This document shows positions 17,808 to 29,373 of a stretch of DNA of 64,000 nt, piece after piece. A program made the translations under genes and the position numbers. Numbering within the stretch: the first letter of the stretch is position 1; every line of letters begins with the position of its first letter. The DNA is from Bradymonadia bacterium (GTDB lineage Bacteria; Myxococcota_A; Bradymonadia; UBA7976; UBA1532). The notes under the pieces are model-generated. The model was not told the origin of the DNA. It made no database searches and saw only the letters and a program-made list of their open reading frames with translations. The stretch lies in NCBI GenBank assembly GCA_046290225.1, contig JBKAGE010000034.1, positions 343,598 to 407,597 on the forward strand, in the 5' to 3' direction.

Positions 17808-19973
17808 TCAGGGTCGGACACACCGAAAATCGTCCGCCGCCATCACCCCATCAGCGCTCTTGTCGATCAGCTCGATCTGTACTTCCCGGCCTCGCAGTGA
17901 TCGCGTGTCGAGGCTCACCCGTCGCAGCGCTCGCCCTGAGGGCACCGGCTTGCGGTGAAGCAGCTCCCCATTGGAGAGCAGCCGCACCTCGAGGCCTGGC
18001 TTTCGATCCCCTGCAGCCATCCACGTGAGGCGATCACACTCCAGAGTAAACGGCGCAGACGTCAGGCGACCCGCTTCGTCGGCGCGGTTGCTGACCATCA
18101 CCCAGTCTCCCTGTACCCCCGAAACCCTGCCTGAGCGCAGGCGGGCCCGTCGCTTTTGAGCAGGAGCCTCGGAGAAGCCCCCCGAAGCAGTCCAGCCCGT
18201 TGTCTGTCCTGCCTCGAAGTTTCCCGTGATGCCTGGGGCGAGCTCCCGGGGCTCTGGATCTTGCGCCAGCCACAGCTCTGCCGGCCTCACCAGGAAGCCA
18301 GTCTTCGCTCGAAGCACATCTTTGTCGGGCCAGACAAGCCGATCAGCGAGGTAGTACTGGCGACCAAGGCCCGGCACTCGATTGCGCTCATCCACGACCA
18401 CGGCAGCCCACTCCTTCTTCCGCAGACGGGGGCCGAGATCTTTGAGGCCCTTCATGAAAGCGACGTCCTGGATGCCCATCTGGTGCGTGTGCACCTGCCC
18501 GTCCCGGGTGTAGGCATAGAATGGGTGTGCGGGCATGAAAACCTTGCCCTTCACCTCCGACAGCTGACGGTCGAGCTGGGCCACAGCCTCGTGATCTGCG
18601 CTGCCCGGCACTTGCTCTGCGGGGTTGTATGCCAGGGCGATGAACTGCAGGGCCAGTGCAGCGGGCACGAGGGCAGTCCACCGATGACTTGAAGGTTGAG
18701 GTGTGCCTTCGGCATCACCTGCTTGGGTCAGATCCCGGACGGCCAGCGCGATCAGGATGCTCCCGAAGACGCTCAAGGGCATGAAGCAGTTGCTGTAGGC
18801 CCATTGGGTGCTGTGATTGAGCGCGCTCGAGCCTGCACCGGCGACGAACATCCAGAGCCAGAAGCCATGGGTGCGGGGGGCGATAGCCACACCGCGTCGA
18901 GCCACACGATAGGCCACCAACATCAACACCATCACCGCGGGTGGCACCATGATGAGCCAGTGAGGCTCTACATAGAACAGCTCCCGGTAGTACATGTGAG
19001 GCATGTCCTTCCAGCCGCTGTTGGCCCGCAAGAACCACGCGTAGGTCCAGTGGGCCGACAGGAGCAGGCTCGGCAGGACGATGGGCACCTTGTATCCAAA
19101 CCACAGCAGTGGGATCAGCAGGAGCACCGGCGCCAGACACAGCACATCTCGCCAGTACTCCATCAAGATGTTCTTCCAATAGAACAAGTGCCCTTGGTGA
19201 CCCTCGAAGGTGTACACCCAGAACCAGCCATCAGTGGCCTGGTTGGCCACGTACACACCAAGAGCACCCAGCCCGAAGGCAAGTGCGCCGAACACTACGC
19301 CGTGTCGCCAGTTGCGCCACAGCAAGTACACCGCGATGGCGGGGGTGAACACGCTGGCAGTCTGCTTGGTGAAGAAACCCACCACACACAGCACAGCGGC
19401 GAGGATGACGCCTCGCCATCGCGGCATCGTGTAGGCGACGTACACCGCCCACAGCATGATGGTGATGAACAACGCGTCGGGGCGGACCAGGTCATAGAAG
19501 GCCCCGTTGAGCCGGAAGAGCGAGGCGTAGATGCCCATGGCCAGCAAGCCGAAGCGCACCCCAGCCTCCCGACGGCCGATGAGGAACAAACAGTAGAACG
19601 TCGACAACGTCGCCGCGAGGGAGACGAGCCGGCCCAACGTGAAGGATAGTCCCCCAGTGATCTGGGACAGACCCCACAACGTGATCGGATACCCCGGTGT
19701 GTAGAAAAATGGCACGAAGTCAGCGCTGGGCTCGGCGTAGATCGGCTGGCCCGAGGCGAGGCGGGCGGCGTGGGCCAGCATGCCCCCCTCCATCCACTCC
19801 ACCTCGAAGGGGTAGAACACCCTGATCAAGGCGACGACCACGAAGATCACCACATAGATCAGCCCCATGGTCACGGCGACGTCGAGCAGGCGCCGAGTGA
19901 TGGGGGGCGTGTTGAACGGCTCAGTCACGGCAGCTCGCGTCAACGGAGGCTCCAGTGAGGTTGATGTCTGCAT
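17808..19973 (-). CDS. polytopic membrane protein, putative GT-C family (PMT/ArnT-like) glycosyltransferase with C-terminal periplasmic domain
   Basis: more than 10 predicted TM helices in the N-terminal 450 aa; soluble C-terminal roughly 250 aa; start assigned to internal Met (MQTSTSLEPP) to avoid overlap with the divergent gene, so start is uncertain. Confidence 0.55.
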   Translation of the reverse strand: MQTSTSLEPPLTRAAVTEPFNTPPITRRLLDVAVTMGLIYVVIFVVVALIRVFYPFEVEWMEGGMLAHAARLASGQPIYAEPSADFVPFFYTPGYPITLWGLSQITGGLSFTLGRLVSLAATLSTFYCLFLIGRREAGVRFGLLAMGIYASLFRLNGAFYDLVRPDALFITIMLWAVYVAYTMPRWRGVILAAVLCVVGFFTKQTASVFTPAIAVYLLWRNWRHGVVFGALAFGLGALGVYVANQATDGWFWVYTFEGHQGHLFYWKNILMEYWRDVLCLAPVLLLIPLLWFGYKVPIVLPSLLLSAHWTYAWFLRANSGWKDMPHMYYRELFYVEPHWLIMVPPAVMVLMLVAYRVARRGVAIAPRTHGFWLWMFVAGAGSSALNHSTQWAYSNCFMPLSVFGSILIALAVRDLTQAGDAEGTPQPSSHRWTALVPAALALQFIALAYNPAEQVPGSADHEAVAQLDRQLSEVKGKVFMPAHPFYAYTRDGQVHTHQMGIQDVAFMKGLKDLGPRLRKKEWAAVVVDERNRVPGLGRQYYLADRLVWPDKDVLRAKTGFLVRPAELWLAQDPEPRELAPGITGNFEAGQTTGWTASGGFSEAPAQKRRARLRSGRVSGVQGDWVMVSNRADEAGRLTSAPFTLECDRLTWMAAGDRKPGLEVRLLSNGELLHRKPVPSGRALRRVSLDTRSLRGREVQIELIDKSADGVMAADDFRCVRP

Positions 19974-20055
19974 CGGCGGATGCGCTGCCTGCGCAGCGCC
20001 GAGACAGGGGGCAAAGTTTGCGGCCCGGCAGTATATAGCGTTCATTCATCTGGAG

Positions 20056-22008
20056 ATGACCAGAAACCGCCCATTGTCCTGTCTCGCTGGAGGCCTCTGC
20101 GCCGGTCTCACCGTCGCGACGCTACATCTCGTGTGGCTCCTCGAGGCGCTGCCCGATGCGCTTCTGAGCCACGAACGGGCTCTGGCAGGTGCCTATGCCC
20201 TCGTACCGCTCCTCACGGTGGCCCTGCTCGTGGGCGGCGCGCTCCAGGGGGTGTGGTGGGCTCGACACCGACTGGCTGATGGCGGGCGACGATGGTTATC
20301 CCGGCTGCTCTGGGGCGCCTCGGCTCTGGCTGTATCGACGCCCGTGGCCTTGTCTCTCGGTGACCGCCTTCAGCCTGTGCTGGCCCACCCGGGAGGCTGG
20401 CCGGCGCTTCAACTGTTGCTCATCTGCGGGCTCGCCCTGCCCTGGGCGTGGGCCCTGAGTAAAATCCCAGCCTCACTGGCTTCGATCTCGAGTGTCTACC
20501 TGAGCCGGCGTCTGCCCTTCGTCGTCGCGGGCATATGTATCGTGGGGGGCCATGGCCTTGTGCATCACCTGCACAGCGTCCCCCAGGTCCAGCGGGCCCT
20601 GCTCGAGCACGCGCCGGGCTTCTCGGGCCTCGCCCTGGCGCTTCAGCCTCTCTTCGATGGCGATGGTGACGGCTTCGCTGATCGTTTTGGCGGAGGAGAC
20701 TGTGACGATGGCGATCCGAATGTGCACCCCAGCGCCCGGGAGATCCCGGGGAATGGTGTGGACGAGGATTGCTTCGGCGGTGACGCTCCGATCCTGCGCG
20801 CTCCGGAGCCCGAGGTGGCCGCGCCAGCACACCCCGACACCTTTCCCCCCGTGGAGCAACCCAACCTCGTCCTCATCACCGTCGACACGCTGCGACCTGA
20901 TGCCCTCGGCGCCTATGGCAACACCTTGGGGCACACCCCGCACCTCGACGCCCTCGCCCACGGCGGGCTGCAGTTCGACTGGGCCTTCGCCCAGGGGCCA
21001 CAGACCAAGGCCTCCGTGCCATCGATGTTCACGGGCGTCTACTTCTCCGAAGTCGATCGAACGCCTGACGCCTGGGCCCGGACCTATGAGACGCACACCA
21101 CCATCGCCGAGCACCTGAAGTCTGCGGGGTACACCACCGCGGGCGTGCCCTGTCACCGCTTCTTCTTGCCCCGGTATGGGCTGGACCAGGGCTTCGACCA
21201 CTGGGATCTCTCTGTGGTACGCGCCCACAACCAGGATGTGGTGCATCACATCACTGGGGGGGAGATCACCGAGCGAGCTTTGACGTGGTTGGAGAGCGAT
21301 GCTGCTCGGGAGAAGCCGTTCTTCTTGTGGCTGCACTACTTCGACCCACACCACTTCTACCAGGACCACGAGACCATCGAAGGTTTTGGCGCGGATGATC
21401 AGGGTCGATACGCGGAAGAGGTGGCCTACACCGATCAGCAAATCGGTGCGTTGATGCAGGCCCTCTCAGCGCCTCCCTTCGCCGATCGCACCTATGTGAT
21501 GGTGCACAGCGATCACAGCGAGGCCTTTCACGACCATGGGTACCGCTATCATGGGGCCCACCTCTACAACGATCAGATCAGGGTGCCTCTGTTGCTGTGG
21601 GGGCCAGGCCTCCAGGGTCACGTGGTGGATCAGCCCGTGGCTCTGCTCGACGTGATGCCCACCCTGCTCGCCCTCGCAGGGGCGCCACCAGAGGTACGGG
21701 CGAGAGGTCGCTCTTTGTTGGGGCACCGCGTGGGCTCGCCTCGGCAGCCTCCGCCCCGACCGATCTTCTCGGAGATGGTCAAAGACGCCACCCACAGCGC
21801 CCGGCGAGTCATCGTCGAGTGGCCCTGGAAGCTGCACTACAGCATCACCTACGACCACTATGCGCTCTTCGACCTGAGCGCAGATCCGAAGGAGCAGACG
21901 GACGTACTCGAGGCGCACCCTGACGTCGCCGAGGCCTTGAAGCGCCGGCTACGACGTTGGATGAGTCAGGAGGTTGAGCGGGCCATGCCACGATGGCCTC
22001 AGAAGTGA
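20056..22008 (+). CDS. sulfatase-family (alkaline-phosphatase superfamily) protein with N-terminal membrane domain, LtaS/EptA-like architecture
   Basis: N-terminal TM helices; sulfatase N-domain NLVLITVDTLRPDALGAYG...SVPSMFTG; canonical C/S-x-P-x-R is replaced by S-V-P-S-M. Confidence 0.7.
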   Translation: MTRNRPLSCLAGGLCAGLTVATLHLVWLLEALPDALLSHERALAGAYALVPLLTVALLVGGALQGVWWARHRLADGGRRWLSRLLWGASALAVSTPVALSLGDRLQPVLAHPGGWPALQLLLICGLALPWAWALSKIPASLASISSVYLSRRLPFVVAGICIVGGHGLVHHLHSVPQVQRALLEHAPGFSGLALALQPLFDGDGDGFADRFGGGDCDDGDPNVHPSAREIPGNGVDEDCFGGDAPILRAPEPEVAAPAHPDTFPPVEQPNLVLITVDTLRPDALGAYGNTLGHTPHLDALAHGGLQFDWAFAQGPQTKASVPSMFTGVYFSEVDRTPDAWARTYETHTTIAEHLKSAGYTTAGVPCHRFFLPRYGLDQGFDHWDLSVVRAHNQDVVHHITGGEITERALTWLESDAAREKPFFLWLHYFDPHHFYQDHETIEGFGADDQGRYAEEVAYTDQQIGALMQALSAPPFADRTYVMVHSDHSEAFHDHGYRYHGAHLYNDQIRVPLLLWGPGLQGHVVDQPVALLDVMPTLLALAGAPPEVRARGRSLLGHRVGSPRQPPPRPIFSEMVKDATHSARRVIVEWPWKLHYSITYDHYALFDLSADPKEQTDVLEAHPDVAEALKRRLRRWMSQEVERAMPRWPQK

Positions 22009-22020
22009 CAGATGACAGCT

Positions 22021-22698
22021 CTACAGCGCCGCCGCCCTGGCAAAGAGACTCTTCCCCACTCTGTGCCACCCCAGGGGGCGCGCCTCTCGAGCGGCCGGGC
22101 GTGCCTCGATGCGGTCCACGTAGGCCTGGAGTCGGGGCCATCGCTCACCGAGGATGAGCCCTCTTCGGATTTGATATCCCAAGGCCGGATAGAAGACACA
22201 GTCGGCGAGGGTGAGTGCTGGCCCGGCGATCCAAGGGTGCTCTTCGAGATGACTGGACCAGATGCTCAGCTCCTGAGCCACCCTGGCCGGCGCCGCCCGG
22301 GCTGCCTCGATTTGCTCAGACGACAACGACGACTGTTGGAGGAACAATGCTTCCAGGGGTCGATACGCCATGCGCAGACGCTCCACCTCGTACATGCGCT
22401 GGAGCATCAGTGCCATGGCCGGGCCCTCGGGACACAACGACGTCTCCGGCCGGCTGGCCTCCAGCCAGTGCAAGATGGCCATGGACTCACACACCGTCGT
22501 GCCGTCAGGCTCCACCCAGACCGGTGCCTGTCCTCTGGGGTTGATGGCCAGAAACTCAGGGCTGCGCGTCTCCCGGGTCGAGCCCATGACTTTGAGACGC
22601 CGGCTCTCGTACTCCACCCCCCGCAGGTGGCACGCCAGCATCACCTGCCAGCTCGGGATGGAGCCGTTGATCCAGTAAAGAGTGGGTCGCTCACTCAC
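22021..22698 (-). CDS. glutathione S-transferase family protein
   Basis: GST N-domain motifs (LYWINGSIPSW..., ESMAILHWLE); GTG start chosen so the overlap with the upstream gene is only 8 nt (the ATG at 22848 would overlap by 158 nt). Confidence 0.7.
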   Translation of the reverse strand: MSERPTLYWINGSIPSWQVMLACHLRGVEYESRRLKVMGSTRETRSPEFLAINPRGQAPVWVEPDGTTVCESMAILHWLEASRPETSLCPEGPAMALMLQRMYEVERLRMAYRPLEALFLQQSSLSSEQIEAARAAPARVAQELSIWSSHLEEHPWIAGPALTLADCVFYPALGYQIRRGLILGERWPRLQAYVDRIEARPAAREARPLGWHRVGKSLFARAAAL

Positions 22699-24121
22699 GA
22701 GGGCGCCCCATATCGAGGATGTCGAACCCCTGACCGTACTCTGCGTCCCAGTCGAAGTCTGGCGTACGATTCTCAAGGCCAAAGGCACGACTGAGTTGGT
22801 CACGCTGCACCGCCCAGGGCCGGCCTTCGAAACCCGGCTTGGGGGCACCCTGGCCGGAGATCGAGCCGTCCGCCTCGATGAAGGTGGAGACGGTTCGGAA
22901 GGTGAGGCTGATGCGGGCGCCGCCCTGAATCAGGGCCGAGGCGGGGCGCTCACCTTCAGTCCGTTTGTCGGGTTTGATGCCGTGTTGAAACAGGCGGTTG
23001 GTTCGCCAGCCCAGAACAAAGAGCGAGTTGTGAGGCATTTCCACCTGACGGGTGGCACCGCTGGCCTTGTCTTTGAGCACCATCATACGTGTGGCGCCGA
23101 GGCTCAGGTTCACCACCGCGCTCCCCCGCTCGATGTCGAGGGTTTTGTCGGCGTGCACCCCGATGTGGCTGTAGCCGTCAGGGTAGAGCTGAATCAACGC
23201 GTGATTGAGCCGCTGTCCGAGACGTCGCTCAGCAGCGATCTTGAGCTTCTCCACTGTGGGCGTCCAGGGCGTGAGGACGGGCTGCTCGTCTGCAGGATGA
23301 CGGTAGAGGGGCGTACGATCGTGCTCCACAGTGGCCTGGATCGCCATACGTCGGGGGACGGGGCTGCCACGGTGCACCATGTCCTGCCAGTCGATCTCGG
23401 CCATGAGATCGTCAAAGGCCGTCTCTGCCAGATCTGACGAGAGCACCCCGTACATCACCGCACTGTCGCCGGCGCCGATCCCCGACCGATCTGCACCCCA
23501 CTGGCCGAGCAGCTCCGCGGAGGAGATCAATTGTCCATAGTGTGTGCCGATGGCAGTGAGCCCGCGATGATGCCGGTTGGGCGTCGTGGCACCGATACAG
23601 TCGGCGATCGCCACCACCTCATACCCGAGGAAGAACGCATCGGCGGCGGTGGCTTGCACGCACACGTTGGCCACCACACCGGTGATGAAGACCCGCTTCA
23701 CTCCAGCCGCTCGCAGCGCGTCGTGGAGCGTCGTTTCAGTAAAGGCAGAGTACCTGTCTTTGACGATCTGTCGGTCTTCCGGTGCGACCAGCTCTGCAGC
23801 AGGTGGCCAGAGCTCGGCCCCCTCTGAGTCGGGGCGGCAACACGGACGACCCGCATGACCGCTGGCGAGGTAGTCGTCGTTCTGCGGCACCCCTTTCGCC
23901 CACGCCTCTTCAGGCCGAGGCGGCCGAACGGGTGGAGGTGCCTCCACACGCTCAGGGTAGTGGCTGGAGACCCAGAAGATCGCCATGCCTCGGCGTCGGG
24001 CCTCAGGCAGCACGGCGCCCAGGGACTCCACGAGGGCGTCGCCAGGCACTGGCCGCTTGAACATACGCTCTGCTTCGAGAAAATCTCTTTGCAGATCAAT
24101 GATGATGATGGCGTCGCTCAT
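22691..24121 (-). CDS. fusion protein: N-terminal isochorismatase-family cysteine hydrolase plus C-terminal AlkB-like 2OG-Fe(II) oxygenase domain
   Basis: AGGAGG RBS 7 nt upstream of ATG (MSDAIIIIDLQRDF); isochorismatase motifs (VFITGVVANVCV...DC); C-terminal LYPDGYSHIGVHADKT...NLSLG...R.N..HGI (HxD...H dioxygenase motif). Confidence 0.7.
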   Translation of the reverse strand: MSDAIIIIDLQRDFLEAERMFKRPVPGDALVESLGAVLPEARRRGMAIFWVSSHYPERVEAPPPVRPPRPEEAWAKGVPQNDDYLASGHAGRPCCRPDSEGAELWPPAAELVAPEDRQIVKDRYSAFTETTLHDALRAAGVKRVFITGVVANVCVQATAADAFFLGYEVVAIADCIGATTPNRHHRGLTAIGTHYGQLISSAELLGQWGADRSGIGAGDSAVMYGVLSSDLAETAFDDLMAEIDWQDMVHRGSPVPRRMAIQATVEHDRTPLYRHPADEQPVLTPWTPTVEKLKIAAERRLGQRLNHALIQLYPDGYSHIGVHADKTLDIERGSAVVNLSLGATRMMVLKDKASGATRQVEMPHNSLFVLGWRTNRLFQHGIKPDKRTEGERPASALIQGGARISLTFRTVSTFIEADGSISGQGAPKPGFEGRPWAVQRDQLSRAFGLENRTPDFDWDAEYGQGFDILDMGRPRE

Positions 24122-24229
24122 GACTTCGTCCTCCTGGCAGCGAAAAATATCATCATTCTTTTCGAATCGGTGTCCCATGATGCGCAGCCGACGTGTCTCC
24201 ACACTGTGACCACCACGGGAGCATGGTTC

Positions 24230-25987
24230 ATGGGCCGATCACTGTTGACATCCAGCACCTCGCCAGTGGCCAGAGCATTGCCATCGACGTCGTGGCTGAG
24301 CCCACTGTCCCTGGCGCTGTGCGCCAGCCTCTGGCTGGCGTCCATGGCCCAGGCCCGTGAGGTCAACGAGGCCGCAGATCAACTGCCCATCGCTGAGCGG
24401 TATGCCCTGGTGGTGGGGCACAACCAGCCCGGCCCTGGTCAATCTGCGCTGCGCTATGCCGAGCAGGACGCCGAAGCCTTCGCTGATGTCCTCACCACGC
24501 TCGGTGGGTTCCCCGAGGATCGCGTGATGCTGTTGCGGCAGCCCACAGCGGCGAAGGTTCGAGCGGCGTTGAGCCATCTCGAAGCCGAGGTGGGCGCTCA
24601 ACACGATCGAGGGGCCCGAACTCTGGTGACGTTCTACTATTCAGGTCACGCCCGCCGTGATCGCCTCGACCTCGGGGCTGATCCCCTGCCCCTCGAGGAG
24701 CTGCGGGCCAGCCTGGAGGGCCTCGAGGCCACAGTGACGCTGGTGGTGCTCGATGCATGCCGCAGCGGTTCGTTCTCCCGGGCCAAGGGGGCCACCGCAG
24801 TGGCCGACTTCGGGTTCGACCGCGCCCGGCAGCTGGACACTCGAGGGTTGGCGGTGATGGCCTCCAGCGCGGCGGAGGAGCTGAGCCAGGAGTCCGAGCG
24901 CCTACAAGGCTCGTTCTTCACCCATCACTTGCTCGCTGCTCTCCGTGGCGCCGGCGACACCGATACAGATGGTCGAGTGTCCCTGCGAGAGGCCTACACA
25001 TATGCCTACAACCAGACCTTGGTGAGCACGGCTCAGACTGCCATCGGCCAACAGCATGTCTCCTTCGAAACAGGCCTCGAAGGCCGCGGCGCTCTGTGGC
25101 TCACTGCGCCAGGTGAGAACGGCAGTCAGCTCGTGCTCCCCTCTGACCTCGCTGGTGAAGCCCTCGTCACCCACCAGGGCCCCTCGGGCACCACAGTGAT
25201 CGCCGAGCTGCACCGGCCTCAGAATGGTGCTGTCAGCCTCGCGGTGAGCCCAGGTCGGTACCAGACGCTCCTGCGTCAGGGGGATCAAATCGGCACCTGT
25301 GTCACCACAGTGGCCCCTGGAGCGCGGCAGAGCGTCTCCCCAGCACAGTGTGCCTTCGGCCCGGTCACAGCCACCGTGGACAAGGGGGCCCTCGGCGCTG
25401 AGGGGACGGATACGCCTTCGCGCAGATGGTCCGTGGAAGTCGCCCTTGGCCTCGCCGACACCCAAGACTCGCCTTACACCGATCGACTGCGAGATTTCGA
25501 CTATCACCGACAGGACGCCCTCTTCGATCTCGTGCCCCGCTATGTGGTGGGTGCTGGCTATCAGCTCGACGATGTGTGGAGCGTGCATCTCACGGGTCGA
25601 AACCTCGGCCAGGCACGATGGCGAATTCATGCTGATGGCGCTGACGACGTCGACACCAATGGCGATACCGACTTCACGTTCAACACATTGGCTCTCACCG
25701 TACACCTGCGTCGACAGGTGAACCTCTTCGATGGGCGCCTGGTGCCCTATGTGCAAGCTGGAGCCGGACCCGCCCTGGCGTGGAGTCGCCTCGAGAACAG
25801 CCCCATCGAATATCACGGCGGTTTTGCGCTGATGGGTGGTGCGGGCGTGCAGCTGATGCCGTGGGACGTCCTCGGGGGCTTCGTGGAGTTCTCCTGGAGC
25901 TACGCGCCGGTCATGGAAAACCTCATCGGCGATACCCACGATCACGGTGGTCGCGCCTTCATCTTCGGCCTGAGAGGAGCCCTCTGA
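24230..25987 (+). CDS. caspase-family (peptidase C14) protein with signal peptide and C-terminal beta-rich domain
   Basis: signal peptide MGRSLLTSSTSPVARALPSTSWLSPLSLALCASLWLASMAQA; catalytic dyad context YYSGHA ... LVVLDACRSG; GGGAG RBS upstream. Confidence 0.75.
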   Translation: MGRSLLTSSTSPVARALPSTSWLSPLSLALCASLWLASMAQAREVNEAADQLPIAERYALVVGHNQPGPGQSALRYAEQDAEAFADVLTTLGGFPEDRVMLLRQPTAAKVRAALSHLEAEVGAQHDRGARTLVTFYYSGHARRDRLDLGADPLPLEELRASLEGLEATVTLVVLDACRSGSFSRAKGATAVADFGFDRARQLDTRGLAVMASSAAEELSQESERLQGSFFTHHLLAALRGAGDTDTDGRVSLREAYTYAYNQTLVSTAQTAIGQQHVSFETGLEGRGALWLTAPGENGSQLVLPSDLAGEALVTHQGPSGTTVIAELHRPQNGAVSLAVSPGRYQTLLRQGDQIGTCVTTVAPGARQSVSPAQCAFGPVTATVDKGALGAEGTDTPSRRWSVEVALGLADTQDSPYTDRLRDFDYHRQDALFDLVPRYVVGAGYQLDDVWSVHLTGRNLGQARWRIHADGADDVDTNGDTDFTFNTLALTVHLRRQVNLFDGRLVPYVQAGAGPALAWSRLENSPIEYHGGFALMGGAGVQLMPWDVLGGFVEFSWSYAPVMENLIGDTHDHGGRAFIFGLRGAL

Positions 25988-26523: not shown

Positions 26524-27003
26524 GTGGAGATCTACGCGCTGTACGGCCCGGCGTTGGTGCGCAAGGCCACCCGGATCCTGCACAGCGAAGACGACGCTCG
26601 AGATGTGGTGCAGGGGCTGTTCCTCGATCTGCTGAAGAAGCGAAAGACCGAGGCCACCCTGCCCTACCTCTATCAGGCCATCACGCGCCGTTGCCTGAAC
26701 CATCTGCGGGACACGCGCAATCGGCAGCGGCTGCTCGACGCCCATGGCGACATGCTCACGCCTTCAGGGGCGTCCACCCTTGAGGGGCGCACCCTCGACC
26801 GGGCCCTCATCGTGGCCCTTGCCCAACGCCTCGATCGAAAACGGTTCGAAGTGATGGTGCACCGCTACATCGACGAGATGGGGGTCGAGGAGATCGCCCA
26901 GCTCACGGGTCGCAGCCGGAAGACCATCGGCCGCTGGCTCAGCCAGATCACCCAGGAAGCCCGGCGCCTCGCCGCTGAGTCTGCAGGAGACGACCATGCA
27001 TGA
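26524..27003 (+). CDS. RNA polymerase sigma factor, ECF subfamily
   Basis: sigma-70 region 2 (DDARDVVQGLFLDLL) and region 4 (VMVHRYIDEMGVEEIAQLTGRSRKTIGRWL). Confidence 0.8.
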   Translation: MEIYALYGPALVRKATRILHSEDDARDVVQGLFLDLLKKRKTEATLPYLYQAITRRCLNHLRDTRNRQRLLDAHGDMLTPSGASTLEGRTLDRALIVALAQRLDRKRFEVMVHRYIDEMGVEEIAQLTGRSRKTIGRWLSQITQEARRLAAESAGDDHA

Positions 27004-27643
27004 GCCCATCAGCTGGCTGACCCTGGAACGGTATCACCTCGGCGAGCTCGACCCTTCAGAGGCCACGGCGCTGCAGGCGAAGATCGAGGTCGATCCGACG
27101 CTCGCTGCTCGACTCGCACAGATCGAGGCAGGCACTTCACTGAAGCCGCTCCCGGTTCAGAATGCACCACAGCCCACGTGGACGATGTGGAAGTGGGCGC
27201 TCCCCATCGCCGCAGTTGCAGCCGTCGCAGTGGCCGTGTTGCCTGGCAAGTCAGTGGTCCCACCTGGGTACATCGGTGCCAAAGGTGGAGAGCCTTTGTC
27301 TCTCACCCTGGTGGCCCAAAGGGGCGATCAGTATGTGCCCATCTCTCACCAATTTACCCCTGATGACGTGCTCAAGGTGCAGGTGACCTGCGCTCCGCCT
27401 GACCAGGAGCGCGTTCAGGTGGTGGTCTTCCAAGAGGACGGAGCCAGCTTCCCTTATCCTGAGCCGCCAGAGGTTCAATGCGGGAACGCAGTTTTGTTGC
27501 CCGGCGCTTTTAGAATCGACCCTGCCGAAGCCAGGGTGTGCGCGCTGCTCTCGGCAGACCATGTCGACCGAGCCCGTTTCCTCTCTGATGGGGTGAAGGC
27601 TCTCCCCGCCCACGCACAGTGCATAACGATCGCCCCATTGTGA
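26996..27643 (+). CDS. anti-sigma factor (N-terminal cytoplasmic anti-sigma domain, one TM helix, periplasmic domain)
   Basis: overlaps the sigma-factor gene by 8 nt; N-terminal WLTLERYHLGELDPSEATALQAKIEVDP motif; TM WKWALPIAAVAAVAVAVL. Confidence 0.7.
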   Translation: MHEPISWLTLERYHLGELDPSEATALQAKIEVDPTLAARLAQIEAGTSLKPLPVQNAPQPTWTMWKWALPIAAVAAVAVAVLPGKSVVPPGYIGAKGGEPLSLTLVAQRGDQYVPISHQFTPDDVLKVQVTCAPPDQERVQVVVFQEDGASFPYPEPPEVQCGNAVLLPGAFRIDPAEARVCALLSADHVDRARFLSDGVKALPAHAQCITIAPL

Positions 27644-27789: not shown

Positions 27790-29373
27790 ATGGCCCACGC
27801 GACACTCAAAGCCCTCATGCCTCTGGCCCTCGCCACCCTCACTGCCTGTGGCGCAATGGATGATGATGCCTACGACAGCGGGGATCAGGGCGGGGCCTAC
27901 TATCCCCCGGCACCGAACAACGGCTATGTCCCGCCGCAAGAGACCCCGCCCAGCGGGGATCCTCAGTCCGGGGAGCAATATGAGCACTACGGCCACAACC
28001 CCTTCGTGGACGCTGAAGAGGACAACCTCGCCACCTTCGCCATCGACGTGGACACTGCGAGCTACACGCTCACCCGCAGGAACATCAACAATGGCTGGCT
28101 GCCGGATCCTGCTTCGATCCGTGTGGAAGAGTTCATCAACTACTTCAAGTACGCCGACGAGGGCCCTGCCCCCTCCGACGCTCGCCCCTTCGCCATTCAC
28201 ATGGAGGTGGCGCCCTCGTTGTTCGGTGACAGCGCTGGCGGCCAGGCCGCGGACGATGTGGAGCGCTCGCTGATGCGGGTGAACATTCGCGGCATCGATC
28301 TCGAAAACGAAGAGCGCAAGTCCGCGAACCTCGTGTTCCTGCTCGACGTCTCCGGCTCCATGTCCAGCCCCGACAAGCTGGGTCTCGTGCAGTACAGTAT
28401 GCGACGTCTCACGGAGACATTGCGCCCCGACGACACCATCAGCATCGTGGTCTATGCGGGCGCCGACGGCGTGGTGCTCCCCCCCACCCCGGTCTCCAAC
28501 GCTGGCCGCATCATCGATGCTGTCGAGAGCCTGCGACCTGGTGGCGGGACCAACGGCGAGGCGGGCATTCGCACGGCCTACCGCCTCGCTCAGGAAGCCT
28601 ACAAGAACGACGGCATCAACCGGGTGATCCTGTGTACCGACGGCGACTTCAACGTGGGCCTCACCGGCGACGCCCTGGTGGGGCTCATCGAGGAGAAGCG
28701 CGACGAGGGTGTCACCCTCACGGTCCTCGGCTTCGGCAGCGGGAACTACAACGATCGCACGATGGAGCAGCTGGCCAACAAGGGGAACGGCAACTACGCG
28801 TACATCGACCAGATCGCCGAAGCGGAGCGGGTGCTCGTCGAAGGCATCACCGGCACACTGCAGGTCATCGCCAAGGACGTGAAGATCCAGGTGGAGCTGA
28901 ACAGCGACGCTGTGGCCCGATACCGGCTCATCGGGTACGAAAACCGCGACATCGCCGACGACCAGTTCCGCGACGACGCGGTGGACGCTGGGGAGATCGG
29001 CGCCGGCCACCAGGTGACGGCCTACCTCGAGCTGGAGCTACAGCCCAATGTGCGGGCCGACGCCACCCTCGACCTGGCCACGGTCCGGGTGCGCTACAAG
29101 GCCCCTGATGCCACGGCGGACGACGCCGCCCTCGAGGAGGTGGCCCGTACGCTGGAGATGGGGGCCCATCGACGGGACTTCGAGGACGCCAGCGACGACT
29201 TCCAGTTCGGCGCAGCCGTAGTGGAGTTCGCCGAGGTCCTCCGGGAGAGCCCGCACAGCGTCGGTCGCCGCCTCGGTGAGCTTCAGAGCGTAGCCCGCCG
29301 CGCTGCCGGCGACGACGCACGACGCGCCGAGTTCATCGAGCTCGTAGAGCGTGCCGCCACCCTCACCCGCTGA
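27790..29373 (+). CDS. von Willebrand factor A domain lipoprotein (YfbK-like, vWA plus DUF3520-type C-terminus)
   Basis: lipobox LALATLTACG; MIDAS motif LLDVSGSMS; conserved N-terminal FAIDVDTASYT and C-terminal VRVRYKAP.. regions. Confidence 0.8.
   Translation: MAHATLKALMPLALATLTACGAMDDDAYDSGDQGGAYYPPAPNNGYVPPQETPPSGDPQSGEQYEHYGHNPFVDAEEDNLATFAIDVDTASYTLTRRNINNGWLPDPASIRVEEFINYFKYADEGPAPSDARPFAIHMEVAPSLFGDSAGGQAADDVERSLMRVNIRGIDLENEERKSANLVFLLDVSGSMSSPDKLGLVQYSMRRLTETLRPDDTISIVVYAGADGVVLPPTPVSNAGRIIDAVESLRPGGGTNGEAGIRTAYRLAQEAYKNDGINRVILCTDGDFNVGLTGDALVGLIEEKRDEGVTLTVLGFGSGNYNDRTMEQLANKGNGNYAYIDQIAEAERVLVEGITGTLQVIAKDVKIQVELNSDAVARYRLIGYENRDIADDQFRDDAVDAGEIGAGHQVTAYLELELQPNVRADATLDLATVRVRYKAPDATADDAALEEVARTLEMGAHRRDFEDASDDFQFGAAVVEFAEVLRESPHSVGRRLGELQSVARRAAGDDARRAEFIELVERAATLTR

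Follow-up and report, generated by a model that had tools for sequence, protein, structure and literature searches.

Oxygenases of the AlkB family, which use Fe(II) and 2-oxoglutarate (2OG), are known to demethylate DNA and RNA and, in a few cases, proteins. Among isochorismatase-like hydrolases, the described systems nearest to the hydrolase considered here are PncA, maleamate amidase (Ami/NicF), RutB, N-carbamoylsarcosine amidase and the biuret/triuret hydrolases. Clustering of 1943 AlkB homologues by Mielecki et al. 2012 (PLoS One 7:e30588, PMC3265494) revealed a new group within the ALKBH2/3 supergroup, ALKBH13, with members in bacteria, stramenopiles and fungi; this group was defined by sequence clustering only, and none of its members was among the homologues assayed in that work. 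Here we analysed a stretch of 64,000 nt (referred to as the window) from contig JBKAGE010000034.1 of a Bradymonadia bacterium (assembly GCA_046290225.1, positions 343,598 to 407,597 of the forward strand), in which one gene encodes an isochorismatase-like hydrolase fused to an AlkB-type oxygenase and the following gene encodes a glutathione S-transferase (GST). Our results show that the hydrolase, the oxygenase and the GST constitute one evolutionarily conserved functional module. The features of the locus, with positions counted in the window and residues (aa) in the 476-aa fusion protein, are the following.

22021..22698, minus strand: partner GST gene, 225 aa, GTG start at 22698, with GST_N and GST_C in Pfam.
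22691..24121, minus strand: fusion gene, 476 aa plus stop, encoding hydrolase, linker, AlkB-type oxygenase and tail; from the list of open reading frames (ORFs), Pfam and an NCBI match.
22691..22698, minus strand: 8-nt overlap, in which the fusion gene ends (stop codon at 22691-22693) and the GST gene begins (GTG), read from the sequence.
22694..22894, minus strand: family-specific C-terminal tail (aa 410-476, 67 aa), with invariant G423, G425, F447, E450, N451, Y462 and G465.
22895..23458, minus strand: AlkB-type Fe(II)/2OG oxygenase domain (aa 222-409), from Pfam and alignments.
Codons of oxygenase residues, minus strand: H323 at 23153-23155, D325 at 23147-23149, H380 at 22982-22984, R403 at 22913-22915 and R409 at 22895-22897.
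23459..23515, minus strand: interdomain linker (aa 203-221), with a conserved G-x-G-A-G-D-S, from the alignment consensus.
23516..24112, minus strand: isochorismatase-like cysteine hydrolase domain (aa 4-202), with triad D9, K121 and C154 (C154 codon at 23660-23662).
23807..23962, minus strand: insert without regular secondary structure (aa 54-105), with the motif H88-x-G-x-P-C94-C95 (Cys-Cys codons at 23837-23842).
24130..24135, minus strand (plus strand CCTCCT): AGGAGG ribosome-binding site, with an 8-nt spacer to the ATG at 24121, read from the sequence.

The fusion gene lies in a single, uninterrupted minus-strand ORF (24202..22691), as seen both in the ORF list and in the sequence itself. 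Since homologues align from residues 1-4 of the 476-aa protein onwards, we placed the start at ATG 24121 rather than at GTG 24202; the strong AGGAGG that an initial annotation, made from the sequence alone, had assigned to this internal start is indeed found 8 nt before it. The 476-aa product is identical (100%, full length) to a protein from a metagenome-assembled genome (MAG) of a Bradymonadia bacterium at NCBI (P0001), which is annotated there only as 'isochorismatase family protein'. Both genes that flank the fusion-GST pair are located on the opposite (plus) strand, one encoding a sulfatase (19867-22008) and the other a caspase-like/outer-membrane protein (ending at 25987), so that the fusion gene and the GST gene form a self-contained two-gene operon. 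The overlap between the two genes measures exactly the 8 nt first reported for it, and the GST is made from the same mRNA as the fusion protein by translational coupling. A scan of positions 21700-24600 revealed no promoter-like site, and a terminator scan of the same interval returned one site, which lies within the GST gene but on the wrong strand and is at the level expected by chance.

The N-terminal half of the fusion protein matches PF00857 (Isochorismatase) at aa 4-202, with an E-value of 1e-34 and 120.6 bits (Pfam cut-off 27), and both the profile match and the fold place it in the isochorismatase-like superfamily. Residue conservation was counted in an alignment of 35 homologues for the hydrolase, and invariance in an alignment of 88 for the oxygenase. 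K121 is kept in 34 of the 35 sequences, and position 154 is occupied by Cys in 22, Ser in 11, Ala in one and Gly in one, Ser being present in all fungal proteins and in a few bacterial ones. The window domain is predicted to be a cysteine amidohydrolase with an intact Asp-Lys-Cys triad. Compared with PncA and its kin, it carries an insert of about 50 residues with a conserved Pro-Cys-Cys (C94 in 30/35 and C95 in 32/35 sequences), which the AlphaFold2 model predicts with a local confidence (pLDDT) of 96-98 over aa 54-105. When aligned by profile to the PncA of P. horikoshii, S53, Y55 and C94 fall at the positions of the metal ligands D52, H54 and H71. The vicinal C94-C95 pair occupies the place of the metal-binding His-Cys of nicotinamidases, and could represent either a variant metal site or a redox-active disulfide. 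An identity as nicotinamidase/pyrazinamidase PncA was rejected on account of the replaced metal ligands and of a PRK11609 score of 33.2 bits against a cut-off of 174. The NCBIfam equivalogs for RutB, biuret hydrolase (BiuH) and YcaC were rejected as well, with 51.2 against 378, 51.2 against 370 and 30.6 against 310 bits, respectively. Because the PncA ligands differ, the insert differs and all equivalog scores fall far below their cut-offs, no specific substrate class can be assigned to the hydrolase.

The second half corresponds to PF13532 (2OG-FeII_Oxy_2) at aa 222-409, with an E-value of 1.8e-28 and 100.5 bits (Pfam cut-off 31.2), which substantiates the fusion of an isochorismatase-like hydrolase to an AlkB-like oxygenase proposed in the initial annotation. 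The HxD...H triad named there, H323/D325/H380, is invariant in the 88 homologues, and the peptide quoted for it, LYPDGYSHIGVHADKT, is found at aa 312-327. R403 and R409, which form the R-x5-R 2OG-binding motif within RISLTFR, and the strand-I tyrosine Y313 are also invariant; a lack of 2OG-binding residues, which would have spoken against an AlkB-type enzyme, is thus not what the alignment shows. The double-stranded beta-helix and the N-terminal nucleotide-recognition lid that characterise the AlkB fold are both present, the lid elements being V255-P256-R257 and Y273-R-H275-P-A-D278. Taken together, these features identify the domain as an AlkB-type Fe(II)/2OG oxygenase with a complete metal and 2OG site, and the fusion protein as a predicted bifunctional enzyme. 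It is connected to the hydrolase by the conserved linker, in which G218 is at least 90% conserved, and is followed by a tail (aa 410-476) that no Pfam model matched and that AlphaFold2 predicts to consist of short strands and of helices at 436-452 and 458-462. Using the 88-sequence alignment, AlphaFold2 returned one compact two-domain model, with a mean pLDDT of 96.3 and a predicted template modelling score (pTM) of 0.92. Mean pairwise identity is highest in the oxygenase (0.57), followed by the tail (0.46) and the hydrolase (0.42).

In the 225-aa partner, GST_N, GST_N_2, GST_N_3, GST_C and GST_C_2 all score above their Pfam cut-offs, and the best relative in the Protein Data Bank (PDB) is the Rho-class GST 3qav (E 3.7e-23). 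Its two-domain fold signatures are shared with Rho-class and theta/zeta-like soluble GSTs. Across 22 partner GSTs, conservation reaches at least 90% in the motifs Y..GSI.SW.V, NPRG..P and ES.AIL, and the N-terminal Ser, the cis-Pro region and the Glu-Ser motif of a predicted glutathione (GSH) site are all present. The partner is a dedicated Ser-type GST; unlike known soluble GST classes, it belongs to an orthologous group of its own, which accompanies the fusion gene and keeps 43-61% identity across phyla. An assignment as maleylacetoacetate isomerase (zeta GST, TIGR01262) was discarded, as the protein reaches 67.1 bits against a cut-off of 171.

The same fusion architecture was found in nearly all of the best 120 homologue clusters and in 43 genomic loci, including those of the finished genomes of Sorangium cellulosum So ce56 and Chamaesiphon minutus. 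With the window GST as tblastn query, an orthologue (43-61% identity) was located directly downstream of the fusion gene in 25 of the 43 loci, or 25 of 40 assessable ones, since three loci end too early to judge. The GST-positive loci belong to Myxococcota, Polyangia, Nannocystaceae, Sorangium, a Planctomycetota MAG and the cyanobacteria Hyella, Xenococcaceae and one Chamaesiphon, and the two genes often overlap, as they do by 8 nt in L002 and by 4 nt in L005 and L009. In a Planctomycetota MAG (L034, 5986-8167) and an unclassified MAG (L041, 5529-7850) the three proteins are encoded by separate genes, with a hydrolase of about 210 aa, an oxygenase with tail of 285-307 aa and a GST of 254 aa. 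In L034 the genes for hydrolase and oxygenase share 4 nt, and the longest GST ORF overlaps the oxygenase gene too; in L041 the first two genes share 14 nt. All three parts are also found on one polypeptide, in the order hydrolase-oxygenase-GST in a marine protein of 729 aa present in many contigs (P0029), in the same order in fungal proteins of about 800-1000 aa (with a thioredoxin-like/GST_C part in third place), and in the permuted order hydrolase-GST-oxygenase in P0123 and P0178. No recurrent neighbour other than the GST emerged from an all-against-all clustering of the ORFs of 54 loci. The occurrence of split, paired, fused and permuted forms argues strongly that the three proteins take part in a single process. 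The shared function with the GST that had first been suggested from the overlap is therefore upheld at the level of the operon link, by the 25 of 40 loci and the one-chain fusions, and the detoxification or small-molecule role attached to it is plausible and is the one that we infer and favour below.

We then examined how large the oxygenase family is and how far it had been catalogued. With aa 215-476 as phmmer query, 510 of 1.84 billion cluster representatives were matched at E <= 1e-30. The best 150 of these 510 (E < 1e-54) are proteins of 248-1518 aa, and the match reaches into the C-terminal tail in nearly all of them; among 48 long representatives, 46 contain the hydrolase domain and 36 contain PF24470 (Thiored_Isochorism), the Pfam family that models the thioredoxin-like part of the fungal proteins. 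The oxygenase parts of these fungal proteins are 45-51% identical to that of the window protein. As a side observation, a HopJ domain is attached to an oxygenase of this subfamily in P0131. The family motifs YRHPAD and HSDKTLD, the latter a form of the subgroup signature H[AS]DKTLD, occur 35 and 37 times, respectively, in the ALKBH13 sequences of Fasta File S16 of PMC3265494, the only supplementary file of that study that contains them. Among its entries are Aspergillus and Coccidioides proteins under the name 'isochorismatase family protein' and, for Sorangium cellulosum So ce56, the name 'putative pyrazinamidase/nicotinamidase'; our own searches also recovered So ce56 and Aspergillus/Coccidioides homologues. 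By its motifs, by the listed proteins and by its distribution, the window oxygenase subfamily matches ALKBH13, as judged at the sequence level. The main text of PMC3265494 makes no mention of a hydrolase, and searches of that text brought up none of a GST partner. Our full-text literature searches found no functional study of a hydrolase-AlkB fusion and no later ALKBH13 paper; apparent matches to the name were 'ALKBH1 37-369' constructs. The domain combination, described at first as unusual, is so only in relation to characterised AlkB enzymes, being common and automatically annotated in sequence databases.

To compare the window oxygenase with characterised members of the family, we aligned it with AlkB from the E. 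coli K-12 genome and with human ALKBH2, whose sequence was checked against PDB chains. The alignment gave the following correspondences.

H323, D325 and H380 of the window protein: H131, D133 and H187 of AlkB; H171, D173 and H236 of ALKBH2.
R403 and R409: R204 and R210 of AlkB; R248 and R254 of ALKBH2.
Y313: Y122 of AlkB; Y161 of ALKBH2.
K326: K134 of AlkB; D174 of ALKBH2.
T327: D135 of AlkB; E175 of ALKBH2.

The window segments NRLFQHGIKP and RISLTFR resemble SRLFYHGIQP and RYNLTFR of E. coli AlkB. In the lid the resemblance is to ALKBH2, where V255-P256-R257 matches V108-P109-R110 and the invariant Y273 stands at the position of F124, a residue that stacks on the flipped base opposite H171 in ALKBH2-DNA structures. 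In contrast, the acid that reads the exocyclic amine of 1-methyladenine (1-meA) and 3-methylcytosine (3-meC), E175 in ALKBH2 and D135 in AlkB, is replaced by an invariant Thr (T327), and the position of ALKBH2 D174 is taken by the invariant K326. The intercalating finger residue F102 of ALKBH2 aligns with the variable V249, in a hairpin shortened by 7 residues and lacking a conserved Phe, and the RKK loop of ALKBH2 is kept only in part. The signature of 1-meA/3-meC repair of the ALKBH2/3 type, a lesion-reading acid together with an intercalating finger, is therefore absent. The window protein further differs from ALKBH2/3 by an 11-residue insert before the last strand of the oxygenase, by the N-terminal fusion to a cysteine hydrolase, by the conserved 67-aa C-terminal tail and by its dedicated GST partner. 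A close structural or sequence relationship to the histone-linked oxygenase of the S. pombe Ofd2 type was also looked for and was not found.

A small N-alkylated substrate is favoured because the aromatic sandwich is kept while the lesion-specific acid and the DNA finger are lost. A small-molecule substrate is also favoured because, to our knowledge, all characterised isochorismatase-like hydrolases, as well as most GSTs, act on small molecules, and the lack of DNA-repair genes near the module in the neighbourhoods inspected was counted for the same side. Three further observations are weak but independent hints in this direction. First, P0178 (L058:5001-8414), which sits on a 3.3-Mb eukaryote-like contig, carries a glutathione-dependent formaldehyde-activating (GFA) domain, a hydrolase, a GST and an AlkB-like oxygenase in an uninterrupted ORF. 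Second, in P0183 (L057:35-1744) the AlkB-like oxygenase is followed, again in an uninterrupted ORF, by a Maf modified-nucleotide pyrophosphatase. Third, in L009 (2958-5898) the fusion-GST pair is preceded directly, at a distance of about 100 nt and in the same orientation, by three genes resembling the soxA/soxB family of amine oxidases (sarcosine-oxidase alpha/beta subunits), all scoring below the curated cut-offs; such genes are also present in L010, L025 and L036 and are confined to one deltaproteobacterial/Myxococcales lineage.

On this basis we propose, with about even chances of being right, that the module acts on a small N-alkylated heteroaromatic amide and not on polymeric DNA. The substrate would be small, planar, N-alkylated and probably cationic, such as a methylated nucleobase, a nucleotide or a pyridinium-type metabolite. 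The hydrolase, by way of a thioester on C154, would break a C-N bond of amide or ureido type. The oxygenase would hold the ring between Y273 and H323 and hydroxylate the N-alkyl group, which would then depart as an aldehyde (formaldehyde in the case of a methyl group). The GST might capture the aldehyde or electrophile, or carry out a GSH-dependent reaction on the product. A comparable succession of steps is known from creatinine degradation, in which N-carbamoylsarcosine amidase, an isochorismatase-like enzyme, acts first and is followed by oxidative N-demethylation by sarcosine oxidase with release of formaldehyde. The likeness would be one of logic and not of oxidase homology, since the demethylase of that pathway is a flavoprotein and its enzymes are separate.

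Several findings weigh against this proposal. The hydrolase is present in only 11 of 56 short representatives, most of the others being stand-alone oxygenases (for example in L046), and 15 of the 40 assessable loci have no GST; given these stand-alone members and GST-less loci, the oxygenase is evidently able to work alone. The GFA and Maf fusions are singletons. Unlike the window protein, the fungal triple fusions P0036, P0063 and P0074 have a Ser nucleophile in the hydrolase and a GST-like part that lacks the NPRG and Glu-Ser motifs of the GSH site; the oxygenase is fully intact in all three, and the accessory domains may have changed their role in fungi. Finally, the isoelectric point (pI) of the oxygenase core, with a median of 8.0 (6.1 with the tail), does not discriminate between substrates.

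The main alternative, possible if rather unlikely, is a defence against alkylation stress, in which the oxygenase would be a true DNA/RNA demethylase of the ALKBH2/3 kind while the GST and the hydrolase would detoxify the alkylating agent or its precursor, for instance methyl halides or N-nitroso amides and ureas. The proteins would then be fused or co-expressed through a common stress and not through a common substrate. The closeness of the oxygenase to ALKBH2/3, the invariance of the residue equivalent to R110 and the mildly basic core would be in line with this explanation. It is at odds with the invariant Thr in place of the acid equivalent to D135/E175, with the variable finger residue and the partial RKK loop, and with the fact that neither ada, ogt nor alkA occurs in any neighbourhood inspected. 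Moreover, the tightly conserved linker and the rigid interface predicted by the model appear to fit sequential chemistry better than mere co-expression.

It is improbable that the oxygenase modifies a protein, with the hydrolase and GST-like domains used chiefly for binding or regulation, although protein substrates have reportedly been proposed for S. pombe Ofd2 (histone H2A) and for ALKBH4 (actin). The Ser nucleophile of the fungal hydrolase and the loss of GSH-binding motifs from the fungal GST-like region would be compatible with such a role, as would the higher conservation of the oxygenase relative to the hydrolase. Even less probable is a pair of tailoring enzymes from a secondary-metabolite biosynthetic gene cluster. 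The hosts (Myxococcota, cyanobacteria and fungi) are rich in natural products, and 2OG oxygenases, hydrolases and GSTs do occur in such clusters; however, no polyketide synthase, nonribosomal peptide synthetase or other biosynthetic gene, and no recurrent neighbour but the GST, was seen across 53 loci, no cluster of this kind was found in the bacterial loci or beside the Aspergillus and Plasmodiophora genes, the Aspergillus gene lies among housekeeping genes, and the window operon is flanked by unrelated genes of the opposite strand. An assembly or frameshift artefact joining two genes, which the initial annotation had itself raised and which could draw on the separate adjacent genes of L034 and L041, has practically no probability in view of the continuous ORF, of the finished genomes of So ce56 and Chamaesiphon minutus, of more than 100 independent clusters, and of a conserved linker modelled with high confidence within a single compact AlphaFold2 structure.

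Regarding the surroundings of the operon, the plus-strand sulfatase-family protein (19867-22008) has a long N-terminal region and a MopE-like putative metal-binding motif. Its gene is convergent with the GST gene across a gap of 12 nt, and its listed 5′ end overlaps the start of an opposite-strand ORF for a PMT_2-like membrane glycosyltransferase (17808-20045). On the other side, the divergent plus-strand gene at 23855-25987 encodes a caspase (Peptidase_C14) domain followed by an outer-membrane beta-barrel match, which is weak (25.4 bits against a cut-off of 28.7); the pairing of caspase and barrel is uncommon. As its listed start overlaps the fusion gene, the real start is further downstream, probably near 24230. 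Next on the plus strand, at 26524-27643, come a gene for a sigma factor of the extracytoplasmic function (ECF) type and, overlapping it by 8 nt, a 215-aa ORF without Pfam match that may encode an anti-sigma factor; after this pair lies a gene for a VWA/YfbK-type protein at 27790-29373. VIT/VWA proteins and Ser/Thr kinases are also found near the module in the myxobacterial loci L001 and L005, and such neighbours are probably lineage background. A search against the anti-phage defence models of PADLOC gave no meaningful match: the fusion protein had only a marginal, generic 2OG match (E 0.0021) and the GST had none.

Overall, the locus is a typical representative of a module widespread from bacteria to fungi, which had already been catalogued as ALKBH13, as PF24470 and through automatic annotations; it adds no new architecture, and an identical protein had already been deposited. 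The interest lies in the family and not in the locus. The recurrent wiring of the oxygenase to an amidohydrolase and a GST strongly implies a shared pathway. A more far-reaching extension of the small-molecule proposal, which we put forward tentatively and consider somewhat unlikely, would take the ALKBH13-type oxygenase out of nucleic-acid repair and make it the first member of the AlkB family known to work on a free metabolite. Its reaction would be the oxidative N-dealkylation of a cationic N-methyl heteroaromatic, such as an N-methylpyridinium amide or a methylated nucleobase or nucleotide derived from the turnover of RNA/DNA; its partners in a fixed three-enzyme assembly would be a cysteine amidase that needs no metal and a GST in charge of the released aldehyde. 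A small-molecule substrate would in itself widen the chemistry of the AlkB family and would allow hundreds of 'isochorismatase family' proteins, those of Aspergillus and Coccidioides among them, to be given a function. The more far-reaching proposal, if true, would define a new salvage or detoxification pathway common to Myxococcota, cyanobacteria, protists and fungi.

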